In this document: one piece after another, positions 35,736 through 38,925 of the stretch
Position numbering within the stretch: the stretch's first letter is position 1
Layout of the letters: the number at the start of each line of letters is the position of its first letter
Sequence record: PV611058
Reading direction: 5' to 3' (one strand)
DNA: 64,000 nt
DNA from: Escherichia phage WPEC3
The notes under the pieces: model-generated
What the model saw: the letters and a program-made list of their open reading frames with translations, nothing else
The model's database searches: none
Told to the model about the DNA's origin: nothing
Program-made: the position numbers and the translations under genes

Positions 35736-38399
35736 ATGGCAGATACAAGTAAGAAATATGCCCAACAACAGTTGGGTCGTTTTGACCCTTCGTACCCACA
35801 ACTAGCAACTGTGATGGATAACCGTGACCCAACTAAATCCGGTAAGCTAAAAGTGTGGATTCAAGGTTCACAAAGTGATAAAAATTCAAAAGAGTCATGG
35901 ATTGAAGCATCATACATGTCTCCATTCGCTGGCAAAACTCCAGGGATACCAAGTGCTGATGCTTATGGTCAATATCCAAAGGGATATGGTTTTTGGGCGG
36001 TTCCACCTGATGTCGGATGTACTGTTGTTGTTATATTTGCACAAGCAAGAACATTCCAAGCGTATTGGATTGGTTGTGTTTATGACCAACGTATGAATAC
36101 GATGGTTCCTGGGATGGCTACTGAAATAAGCAACTATGCTGGTACTGATATGCCATTACCCGTAACTGATTATGACCGTAATACAATTTCTACCAGTACT
36201 CAAGACAAATATGCAAACGTTCCAATTATTGCAGGTCTGAAAAAACAAAACTTACTTTATGATGAGGAAGCGGGTGTTGCTAACCGTAGCAGTACTCGCC
36301 AGACCACCAGTACTGTTTATGGTCTTTCCTCACCTCGTGGTAACAGTTTTATTATTGATGATGGTTACACAGAAGAAGAATTAACAGCACCTACATGGGA
36401 TCAAGATCCAGATGGTTATCAGGATACCCAATTCAATAACCCAGTGAACGATACTCGTGTTGGTTCTCGTAAAAATGAAGGCGTTGTAATTAAAACACGT
36501 AGTGGTGCACAGTTGTTGTTATCTGAAGCCTCTGGTGATGTTCTTTTAATTAACCGTGATGGTACTGCACGTATTAAATTCACTGGTGAAGGTGATATTG
36601 AAATGCACTGTGATAAGAATATTAACATTCGTGCAGGTCAAGATATTAACATGGTTGCTGGACGCTCATATAATATTGAAAGTGGAGCAGACTTCAATGC
36701 TCGTGTTGGTGCAAACACTAAACTAGATTTGGTTGGTGCATTGGATGCTAAAGTTGGTGGTCAGGTTGTTATTAACGCTGGAGCAGATTTACGTTTAGTA
36801 ACAGCAGCTTCATTGCGTATGCAAAGTGGTAGCAGTACTGATATAACTGCTGGTTCTAATGCGTCAATCTCTGCTGCTACCAGTGCTAATCTTATTGGTT
36901 CTTCATCAGCTATTATTAGTGGTGGTGGTCAAACTCTTACTGTTAACAGTGGTGGTAATAGTGGTACTGCTGAATTTAATGCACCAAACTTCCGCACCCC
37001 ATCTGCTGGCTTGAATGATCATATACATGATATATCGGCTTGGGTTGATGCAGAGAATCACGGCAGTACTGTTGAACCTCCACGTCAAGGTGGTGGTAGT
37101 GGGAATAGTGAATCCCCAGTTCAACCTGAACCTGCTAATGATGTAGCTCCAACTTTAGCTCCAGTACAGGACACTGAAGCAATTCAATATGTAAATTATA
37201 CAACAGAAACAGAACAAGTTCAAACACAAGATTTAATGACTTCTGATCCTGGTATGACTGGTTATAGCATTACTTATGAAGGTCTTCATATGTTCATGCC
37301 GTGTAGTGGAACCATTCGCCAATACGGTTATTGGGGGAAAGGTGTCCCGACTAGTGGTGGTGGTAAAGCTGATAGAAGTGGCTGGGAAATACAGTGCAAG
37401 GGTGATGTTGTAGCTCCAGATGGCGGTGTAGTTGTTATCACTAATGGTGCTTTATTGGTTCAACATAAGTCTGGATATAAATCTGTATTTTATAATATTC
37501 AATCAGATTTGCTCAATAAAGACGTTGTTCAAAAAGGTCAAGTTATCGGTAAAGCTAATGGTGTTATTCAATTTGAAATAAGAGTAACCTCTGCCAACGT
37601 ACTAGGATTTAGTGGTTCAGTTGACCCTGGATTATTCTACGCATCGCAGACTGGTACAGGTTCTGAAGCGGGAAATAAAACATTAATTGCAGGACAAGCA
37701 ACGAACCAAGCAGCACCGAAAGCTGTTGTTCAACCTTCTGTTGATAGTGATGAATTAGTTGTAACAACTAAAATTAAAACTATCGGTACTGGGTATTCTC
37801 AACGTGGTTCTCGTCATGTTCCTCGTCGTAGAAGAACACAACGTTCAGGTGGTACTCCAGCACCTACTGCACAAGAATCATACAATGTGGGTAATGTTGA
37901 TAAGACTGCAATTGATTGGAAAGTTGTTCCAGGTGATTCACAATTTATTTCTGAATTGAAAGAATATGAAGGAACAATGGCGTATCAACAAGCTAAAGGA
38001 TATTACCGCAATGGTAAATTCTGGAGATATTTGGACAGTCGTGGGTTCCCAACCATCGGATACGGACACTTGATCGTTAATGGGGAAAACTTCTCTGGTG
38101 GTATTACTGAACAGGAAGCCAATGATATGTTGGTTCGTGATAGTAGTAAGGCTATATATGATGCTAAATCAATCTACGCTTCTTATAAGATGAAAACACC
38201 TTACATGGCACAACAAGTTCTATGTCAAATGGTATTCCAGATGGGTAAAGGTGGTGTAATGAAATTTAAGATGATGCTATCTGAAATGGCAAAAGGTAAC
38301 TACAAGCAAGCTGCTGCTCAAATTCGAAATTCAGCTTGGTATCGTCAAACTACACGCCGTGCTGAATTAATGGCACGTAGATTAGAGGCATGTCAATAA
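35736..38399 (+). CDS. baseplate central spike (gp5-like) with beta-helix, degenerate M23-like segment and C-terminal GH24 lysozyme domain
   Basis: C-terminus TIGYGHL...MVFQMG...SAWYRQTTRRAELMARRL is T4-lysozyme-like; Gly/Ala/Ser beta-helix repeats in the middle. Confidence 0.75.
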   Translation: MADTSKKYAQQQLGRFDPSYPQLATVMDNRDPTKSGKLKVWIQGSQSDKNSKESWIEASYMSPFAGKTPGIPSADAYGQYPKGYGFWAVPPDVGCTVVVIFAQARTFQAYWIGCVYDQRMNTMVPGMATEISNYAGTDMPLPVTDYDRNTISTSTQDKYANVPIIAGLKKQNLLYDEEAGVANRSSTRQTTSTVYGLSSPRGNSFIIDDGYTEEELTAPTWDQDPDGYQDTQFNNPVNDTRVGSRKNEGVVIKTRSGAQLLLSEASGDVLLINRDGTARIKFTGEGDIEMHCDKNINIRAGQDINMVAGRSYNIESGADFNARVGANTKLDLVGALDAKVGGQVVINAGADLRLVTAASLRMQSGSSTDITAGSNASISAATSANLIGSSSAIISGGGQTLTVNSGGNSGTAEFNAPNFRTPSAGLNDHIHDISAWVDAENHGSTVEPPRQGGGSGNSESPVQPEPANDVAPTLAPVQDTEAIQYVNYTTETEQVQTQDLMTSDPGMTGYSITYEGLHMFMPCSGTIRQYGYWGKGVPTSGGGKADRSGWEIQCKGDVVAPDGGVVVITNGALLVQHKSGYKSVFYNIQSDLLNKDVVQKGQVIGKANGVIQFEIRVTSANVLGFSGSVDPGLFYASQTGTGSEAGNKTLIAGQATNQAAPKAVVQPSVDSDELVVTTKIKTIGTGYSQRGSRHVPRRRRTQRSGGTPAPTAQESYNVGNVDKTAIDWKVVPGDSQFISELKEYEGTMAYQQAKGYYRNGKFWRYLDSRGFPTIGYGHLIVNGENFSGGITEQEANDMLVRDSSKAIYDAKSIYASYKMKTPYMAQQVLCQMVFQMGKGGVMKFKMMLSEMAKGNYKQAAAQIRNSAWYRQTTRRAELMARRLEACQ

Positions 38400-38412
38400 A
38401 TATTTCAGTACT

Positions 38413-38420
38413 ATAAATAA
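38413..38420 (+). promoter_or_regulatory. T4-type late promoter TATAAATA upstream of endolysin
   Basis: ttcagtacTATAAATAataa 17 nt upstream of ATG 38437. Confidence 0.65.
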
Positions 38421-38436
38421 TAATGAGGAAATCTTT

Positions 38437-38925
38437 ATGAGTAAATGGGAAATCAAAAATACCGACGAACAATTTTTTAAAGAAATTAAAGAATTTGAAG
38501 GTACTATTGCGTATCAGAAAAAACTTGGTTATTTTAAAAATGATAAGTTTTGGGTATATAAAGACAGTCTAGGTCTTGATACCATTGGTTACGGTCACCT
38601 TGTACTTAAGGGTGAAAGTTTCAAAAATGGACTCACTGAAGCAGAAGCTGATGCTCTCCTTATAAAAGATGCTCAGACCGCTTACAATGACGCAAAATCA
38701 ATCTATGATCAATTTGGAATGACTGCTCCAGTACAGGTTCAGCGTGTATTGTGGTTTATGGTGTTCCAAATGGGTAAATCAAAAGTTTTAAATTTCAAAA
38801 AAGCGATGGCTGCTCTCGGTCGTGGTGATTATAAAACTGCTGGTAAAGAAATGCGTGATAGTTCGTGGTACAAACAAACCACATCCAGAGCGGAGAAGAT
38901 GGCTCGCATCGTCGAATCCGTATAA
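38437..38925 (+). CDS. endolysin, T4 e-type lysozyme (GH24)
   Basis: TIGYGHL, MVFQMG and SSWYKQTTSRAEKMARIV match T4 lysozyme blocks. Confidence 0.85.
   Translation: MSKWEIKNTDEQFFKEIKEFEGTIAYQKKLGYFKNDKFWVYKDSLGLDTIGYGHLVLKGESFKNGLTEAEADALLIKDAQTAYNDAKSIYDQFGMTAPVQVQRVLWFMVFQMGKSKVLNFKKAMAALGRGDYKTAGKEMRDSSWYKQTTSRAEKMARIVESV

Follow-up and report, generated by a model that had tools for sequence, protein, structure and literature searches.

A predicted central spike of VgrG/gpV-like plan with a degenerate LytM domain and a C-terminal lysozyme, encoded beside a free-standing lysozyme paralogue in a RaK2-like jumbo phage

The closest described counterparts of the proteins considered here come from RaK2-like phages. 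The RaK2 paper of 2013 reported three lysozyme paralogues and called the 886-aa ORF078 'very unusual', describing a beta-helix between unmatched regions and a lysozyme at the C-terminus (PMC3622015); the CBB paper of 2017 described the adjacent T4-type lysozyme, CBB_239 (PMC5259590). The domain order, the small lysozyme neighbour and the late promoter are covered in PMC3622015, PMC5259590, PMC7247149 and PMC12805682. In the published RaK2-like descriptions the central domain appears as a possible 'M23 family peptidase', and neither the loss of its metal site nor the internal HxH is mentioned. Here we analysed the corresponding locus in a stretch of 64,000 nucleotides from Escherichia phage WPEC3 (sequence record PV611058; the whole stretch is called the window below). 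An earlier note on this DNA had presented its 887-aa protein as a T4 gp5-like spike with rearranged domains, followed by a paralogous endolysin with its own promoter. In that form the finding is already known from RaK2 (2013; PMC3622015) and CBB (2017; PMC5259590). Both open reading frames (ORFs) lie where the note had placed them and have the lengths it gave:

35736..38399, + strand: spike gene, ORF of 887 aa; PHROG 13211 match end to end; orthologue found in virions by mass spectrometry (MS) (PMC7247149, PMC5259590)
38437..38925, + strand: free-standing GH24 lysozyme, ORF of 162 aa; identified by Pfam, BLASTP and alignment; orthologues LysUE1, CBB_239 and RaK2 ORF073

With moderate confidence, we regard as the best explanation of the whole that the 887-aa protein is a trimeric central spike built to a VgrG/gpV-like plan and not to that of T4 gp5. 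Conservation was counted over 67 spike homologues (37-87% identity), and an alignment of 67 homologues was used for an AlphaFold2 (AF2) model of the monomer, which had a mean predicted local distance difference test score (pLDDT) of 75.5. The helix (~250-410), a short strand-helix element (477-501), a globular domain (~520-650) and the lysozyme (727-887) were modelled with confidence, and residues 501-511, 660-664 and 701-718 formed disordered linkers. The protein can be divided as follows:

35793..36089, + strand: N-terminal OB-fold domain, residues ~20-118 (Pfam Phage_base_V, PF04717, at 23-116, E 7.9e-7; VgrG OB fold of 9jg8; AF2 strands)
36093..36470, + strand: connector, residues 120-245 (conservation and AF2)
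36483..36965, + strand: triple beta-helix needle, residues ~250-410 (Pfam DUF2345; VgrG1 helix matches 4uhv and 9gtr; pLDDT 81-90)
37020..37028, + strand: H429-x-H431 ('LNDHIH'), candidate Apex histidine cage, directly after the helix
37086..37292, + strand: Gly/Ser/Pro-rich linker with the short strand-helix element, residues 451-519 (entropy 1.8-2.0 bits; pLDDT <50 at 501-511)
37293..37685, + strand: degenerate (non-catalytic) LytM/M23-fold domain, residues 520-650 (profiles, sub-model and ligand mapping)
37686..37913, + strand: second linker, residues 651-726 (conservation and AF2)
37914..38396, + strand: C-terminal GH24 (T4-type) lysozyme domain, residues 727-887 (catalytic triad E745, D767, T773)

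By sequence, the solved structures closest to the first 470 residues are VgrG spikes of type VI secretion systems (T6SS) (9jg8, E 1.2e-5; 4uhv and 9gtr), not T4 gp5. The VgrG-type beta-helix family DUF2345 was matched at residues 278-329 with 30.9 bits, for a cut-off of 30.7, and relatives of the spike have a Gp5_trimer_C-type helix in Pfam. We propose that the OB-fold domain docks the spike onto the hub or tube. No other stretch of the protein is as conserved as the connector that follows (mean identity 0.71, entropy 1.00 bits, many invariant residues), yet AF2 modelled this connector poorly (pLDDT 41-73); because the highest conservation coincides with low model confidence, the connector probably folds solely against hub partners. 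Directly after the helix, both H429 and H431 are invariant (67/67 homologues). According to work on the P2 spike, HxH after the beta-helix is the one sequence feature that all Apex domains conserve, and where a spike lacks it, as T4 gp5 does, a PAAR cap takes its place (bioRxiv 10.1101/2023.02.25.529910). Here the motif lies in the middle of the chain, with 456 residues C-terminal of it.

The first of the domains beyond the motif was identified as an M23/LytM fold by profiles and by structure prediction. The single-sequence Pfam match of Peptidase_M23 (residues 550-607) was below threshold, with 18.1 bits for a cut-off of 28.7; PF01551 was matched by 18/18 diverse homologue segments, with a best E of 5.6e-11. 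In a comparison of the family profile with the PDB, the top matches were M23/LytM chains, namely SpoIIQ (1.6e-6), LasA, DipM, TagE/Csd, zoocin and EnvC. An AF2 sub-model of residues 466-700 had block-mean pLDDT values of 81-95 in its core, and the top 40 Foldseek matches of this sub-model were all M23/LytM domains, with EnvC as the best structural match.

A distant relative of the spike, the 619-aa protein P0105, has the OB fold and helix followed by a C-terminal M23 domain (97.7 bits) in which all the catalytic motifs are intact (HPGVD, IDH and HCHFE). When P0105 was aligned to the family profile with hhalign, the His and Asp of HxxxD fell on R547 and E551, and the two His of HxH on V610 and Q612. 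None of the 67 homologues has the His/Asp pair of HxxxD, and none has a His at either position of HxH. This mapping onto an intact site, together with the family-wide counts, rules out a catalytic M23 peptidase for residues 520-650. Other residues are retained: 66-67 of the 67 homologues have H577, E614 and R616, which, together with W550, all in the region of the groove, are invariant or nearly so. The column entropy of the LytM domain (1.37 bits) is close to that of the GH24 domain (1.39 bits), versus 1.8-2.4 bits for the linkers, which indicates that purifying selection acts as strongly on the LytM domain as on GH24. Because the metal ligands are lost, yet conservation is as strong as that of the lysozyme, residues 520-650 are best read as a functional, non-catalytic LytM module. 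In an exhaustive search of representatives with the LytM profile, just seven were found at E <=1e-30, all of them these spikes (872-984 aa). Then came a gap of 13 orders of magnitude and below it generic M23 proteins, so that this search returned no close relatives of the domain outside these spikes. The next matches, multi-M23 bacterial proteins with intact and degenerate copies, are uninformative on its origin.

At the C-terminus, Pfam Phage_lysozyme was matched at residues 765-882 (E 1.3e-10), and the GH24 profile scored above its curated threshold in both the spike and the 162-aa protein. The equivalents of T4 Glu11, Asp20 and Thr26 are E745, D767 and T773 in the spike and E21, D43 and T49 in the free enzyme, and the triad is kept in all three GH24 paralogues of the phage; the spike GH24 domain is proposed to be an active muramidase. 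These results agree with most of what the earlier note had said of the domains. The order of the Pfam matches and the AF2 model place a GH24 domain with its catalytic Glu, Asp and Thr at the extreme C-terminus, after the beta-helix, and the middle segment is M23/LytM-like and lacks the catalytic HxH, as noted. An unrelated middle fold or a C-terminal domain other than GH24 would have contradicted the note; profiles and structure prediction yielded neither.

On this basis we propose the following course of events. The OB fold would seat the spike on the hub, the beta-helix would serve as the needle, and the invariant HxH would close the needle as an Apex-like histidine cage. Each chain would then continue through flexible linkers into the non-catalytic LytM-fold domain and the GH24 muramidase, so that contraction of the sheath would carry three tethered LytM-GH24 modules with the needle through the outer membrane and into the periplasm. 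There, GH24 would cut glycan strands locally for the passage of the tube, and the LytM remnant would most likely bind peptidoglycan stem peptides, or position or regulate the lysozyme. The 162-aa gene would be an old tandem duplicate of the lysozyme module of the spike with its own late-promoter motifs, encoding a soluble late muramidase that stays outside the virion and probably aids lysis beside a membrane-anchored LysM-GH24 paralogue encoded elsewhere.

Several observations weigh against this proposal. Three times 45 kDa beyond an Apex would be mechanically awkward, and the models are monomeric. The HxH of the spike could be a mid-fibre registration cage rather than a true apex, as such cages have been noted in fibres (bioRxiv 10.1101/2023.02.25.529910). 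The virion proteomics of the spike orthologues bears on the protein as a whole and not on its C-terminal half, and MS of RaK2 did not detect ORF078 (PMC3622015). Finally, the deep branching of the two lysozyme lineages has a bootstrap support of 15-31%.

The linkers bear on the question of whether the C-terminal domains stay attached. The second linker contains a conserved strand or motif, 'ELVV.T.I.TIGTGYSQRGS..P' (about residues 671-697; window positions 37746-37835 for residues 671-700), and directly after this motif follows a hypervariable, disordered stretch rich in Arg and Lys (701-718); entropy is 1.35 bits at residues 673-697 and 2.44 bits at 698-726. In the sub-model the flanks 466-511 and 666-692 had pLDDT <50, and we therefore assign no fold to the strand-helix element or to the QRGS strand. 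The QRGS motif is a candidate docking strand or a candidate site of maturation cleavage. In the latter case, LytM and GH24 might be cleaved off during assembly, at QRGS and the Arg-rich stretch or in the 450-520 linker, and be either bound non-covalently or lost, leaving a clean Apex tip. T4 gp5, which is cleaved during maturation into gp5* and gp5C, would be a precedent, and the passage from the conserved motif 'SIGSGYSQRGS..P' to a variable, disordered basic stretch would suit a processing site. The MS sequence coverage of the spike in virions was also low (9.9% and 4.1%; PMC7247149, PMC5259590). However, phAPEC6 gp241 is given by its predicted full mass alone, and the strong conservation of both C-terminal domains implies that they function somewhere. 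We consider such cleavage unlikely.

The arrangement of the domains could instead reflect descent from T4 gp5, with the lysozyme shuffled from before the beta-helix to after it. In agreement with this, the best PDB sequence matches of the spike lysozyme are the lysozyme domains of gp5 (7cn7 and 9f4a), and many baseplate genes of the phage are T4-like (gp25, gp53, gp48 and gp6-like). The margin of the gp5 lysozymes over T4 e lysozyme is, however, a mere ~100-fold in E-value, the N-terminal half of the spike matches VgrG spikes and not gp5, and the invariant HxH has no counterpart in T4 gp5. Distant relatives that have the same OB and helix front end carry other C-terminal modules: P0105 ends in the intact M23 domain, a 766-aa protein (P0099) has a weak GH19-type match just below the cut-off (23.4 bits versus 25.5), and a third (L030:3501-5882) carries GH24 alone, without LytM. 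In this spike lineage the C-terminal modules appear interchangeable, and because relatives carry differing modules at the same C-terminal position, the layout looks like modular appending of domains rather than shuffling of gp5. The 'rearranged' gp5 of the earlier note is thus probably the wrong evolutionary picture, given the VgrG-type front half, the HxH and the swappable modules, and derivation from gp5 seems to us improbable.

The paralogy between the lysozyme domain of the spike and the 162-aa protein is clear (BLASTP, 50% identity over 159 aa, E 9e-57). The order of spike, small lysozyme and gp25 is kept in 19 sampled genomes, down to ~39% spike identity, and at the two loci that diverge most (35-40% identity) the free lysozyme is absent and the spike gene is followed directly by gp25. 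In RaK2 an insertion of ~1.8 kb (L021, between 6158 and 7952) separates the spike and free lysozyme genes, which are adjacent in every other sampled genome that has both. In a tree of lysozyme domains with 200 bootstrap replicates, copies from the same genome were never sisters, and the free and spike sub-clades mirrored one another with 96-100% support. Identities were 0.65 among free copies and 0.64 among spike copies, higher than the 0.53 between the classes. Recent duplication or gene conversion was rejected, since no same-genome pairing occurred in the 200 replicates and identity within the classes exceeds that between them. The mirrored sub-clades, the lack of same-genome sisters and the higher within-class identities indicate that the duplication is old and that the copies have diverged independently since. 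Position and synteny suggest that the free gene derived from the 3' end of the spike gene.

The paralogy claimed by the earlier note stands; that the 162-aa enzyme is an endolysin, as the note also had it, is unproven. The 162-aa gene is flanked by those of the spike and gp25 and is not part of a holin/spanin lysis cassette. A third GH24 paralogue, phAPEC6 gp293c (L003:37101-38027, - strand, 308 aa), has an N-terminal transmembrane (TM) segment followed by LysM and GH24 and lies among non-structural genes; no third lysozyme copy was found in the window, and this paralogue is located elsewhere in the genome. In the CBB paper the endolysin role was given to the TM-LysM-lysozyme protein, which was toxic on expression (PMC5259590). 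One alternative is that the 162-aa lysozyme serves the baseplate, in its structure or its assembly, and is not a lysis enzyme, as its place inside the baseplate operon, between spike and gp25, in the 19 sampled genomes would suggest. We hold this to be improbable as well. MS of phAPEC6 virions found the 95.9-kDa spike and not the small lysozyme (PMC7247149), and in the CBB virion proteome the spike orthologue CBB_240 was detected and CBB_239 was not confirmed as structural (PMC5259590). The two most divergent relatives lack the gene, although synteny of their baseplate genes is otherwise kept, and the orthologue LysUE1 is an active soluble muramidase that was purified and found muralytic in vitro (PMC12805682).

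We find it very unlikely that the degenerate LytM domain mimics EnvC or NlpD, either binding and activating host AmiA/B/C at the entry site or gating the GH24 of the spike itself, because, although the non-catalytic DipM and SpoIIQ are among its best sequence and fold matches and the groove residues are so well conserved, EnvC is matched only weakly by sequence (E 0.03) and amidase recognition would have to be conserved across hosts as unlike as Xanthomonas and Escherichia. If it did, entry would depend on the local switching-on of host autolysins, hijacked to act beside the muramidase of the spike, and the spike would be the first virion protein to use the bacterial amidase-activation mechanism for genome delivery.

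Over the spike and lysozyme stretch the DNA is 99.5% identical to Escherichia phage EC.P1 and ~84.6% identical to PBECO4, and by these identities the source is an Asteriusvirus, a RaK2-like jumbo myovirus. GC content is 0.40 at 36001-38000, where the spike gene encodes its Gly/Ser/Ala-rich beta-helix and linkers, versus ~0.36 in the remaining window. According to Pfam and PHROG, a T4-like baseplate module with every gene on the + strand surrounds the spike, in the order gp48-like, gp53-like, a 751-aa virion protein, spike, small lysozyme, gp25-like, a gp6-like 1153-aa wedge protein and a 3333-aa giant virion protein. The last of these is a single ORF at 42951-52952 (+), directly 3' of the gp6-like wedge gene; MS detected its phAPEC6 orthologue, gp245 (382 kDa), in virions. 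Two further genes concern the baseplate and late transcription:

38941..39336, + strand: gp25-like baseplate wedge gene (Pfam GPW_gp25, synteny)
31439..32377, - strand: T4 gp55-type late sigma factor gene (PHROG 12791 and PHROG 234, 'late sigma transcription factor')

The gp48-like gene is too long as a mechanical ORF with a TTG start (32320-33141, +, 273 aa); its annotated ATG is at 32410. A late-promoter motif at 32367-32374 falls within this spurious extension and also runs into the opening codons of the divergent gp55-like gene.

The promoter elements at the lysozyme gene, and examples of their core elsewhere in the window, are:

38412..38419, + strand: TATAAATA, a perfect T4 late -10 consensus, in the Asteriusvirus group only; ends 17 nt before the lysozyme ATG
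38395..38402, + strand: AATAAATA, a late-promoter-type motif; overlaps the spike stop codon and ends 34 nt before the lysozyme ATG
1643-1649(-), 5801-5807(+), 15464-15470(-), 18657-18663(-): ATAAATA core examples (window scan)
25826-25832(+), 32368-32374(+), 39374-39380(+), 61025-61031(+): ATAAATA core examples (window scan)

The earlier note had assigned the TATAAATA copy to the lysozyme gene as its promoter. A chance origin of this motif was rejected: it is no more frequent in the window than chance predicts (5 versus 7.3 expected), yet each of the 5 copies has a same-strand start 17-58 nt downstream, compared with 11.6% for composition-matched 8-mers. The ATAAATA core lies 11-65 nt upstream of a same-strand ATG in 16 of its 20 copies (10.7% for composition-matched sequences; binomial p ~1e-12), with a usual gap of 29-58 nt. 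The genes served by the motif include those of the major head protein, the gp48-like and the gp6-like protein. The motif is thus real and placed far from chance, but the copy that the note had flagged is restricted to Asteriusvirus and, at 38412-38419, nearer to the ATG than is usual; a Shine-Dalgarno sequence, GAGGA, follows at 38425-38429. The conserved copy is AATAAATA, found in GAP32-like, RaK2 and other groups, and its 34-nt spacing is typical. XaC1-like loci have neither copy. We take TATAAATA and its ATAAATA core as putative T4-type late promoters, for which a gp55-type sigma factor is encoded; for CBB, too, ATAAATA was reported as a late promoter, together with a gp55-like sigma factor (PMC5259590). 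The ATAAATA placements provide a usable late-promoter map of the window.

In the literature we found no account of the family-wide loss of the M23 metal site or of the internal Apex-type HxH, nor of how old the duplication is, of the conserved promoter copy or of the alternative C-terminal modules of related spikes. Searches for degenerate LytM domains in phages and for a cryo-EM structure of a RaK2-like baseplate returned nothing relevant. The annotation 'M23 peptidase' is misleading for what we read as a conserved non-catalytic LytM domain, whose candidate roles are peptidoglycan binding, control of the lysozyme and recruitment of host amidases. The mid-chain Apex-type motif poses the structural question of how 3 x 45 kDa of tethered domains could be accommodated beside a needle tip. 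A spike lineage that swaps modules would lend itself to engineering and to comparison with evolved VgrGs, and the three GH24 paralogues (spike-tethered, soluble, and membrane-anchored with LysM) offer a clean system for subfunctionalisation. Enzymes of the LysUE1 type have already been explored as antibacterials.

Among known systems, RaK2 ORF078, CBB_240 and phAPEC6 gp241 are orthologues of the spike (58-99% identity) with the same domain order, neighbouring lysozyme gene and late-promoter motif, and we see no biological difference from them. T4 gp5 shares with the spike the OB fold, the triple beta-helix and GH24, and the T4 genome also has a soluble paralogue (gene e). In gp5, however, the lysozyme is inserted after the OB fold and ahead of the helix, whereas here it comes last (727-887, with the helix at 250-410); the gp5 helix ends the chain, has no HxH and is capped by PAAR (gp5.4), and gp5 has no LytM, whereas here the HxH is followed by 456 further residues. 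P2 gpV and phi92 gp138 have in common with the spike the OB fold, the intertwined beta-helix and an HxH directly after the helix. The HxH of gpV is ~12 residues from the C-terminus, whereas here it occupies residues 429-431 of 887, with two globular domains after it; the Apex of the gpV/gp138 type binds Fe at an octahedral site formed by three chains, for which the histidine motif here would be a candidate. V. cholerae VgrG-3 is an 'evolved' VgrG of the T6SS with a C-terminal peptidoglycan-degrading domain. The spike resembles such proteins in having a DUF2345 beta-helix followed by a cell-wall-degrading module at the C-terminus, and differs from them in that no gp27-like module is fused to its N-terminus, its neighbours are phage baseplate genes, and its GH24 follows a degenerate LytM. 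The tail-tip protein gp13 of phi29 consists of a lysozyme and then an M23 endopeptidase, both catalytic. It likewise combines a muramidase with an M23 fold at the tail tip for penetration of the wall, but the M23 fold of the spike is without zinc ligands and precedes the lysozyme. EnvC, NlpD, DipM and SpoIIQ share with the spike an M23 fold that has no metal ligands and is under selection; these proteins are bacterial regulators and scaffolds, whereas the LytM domain described here is confined to these spikes.

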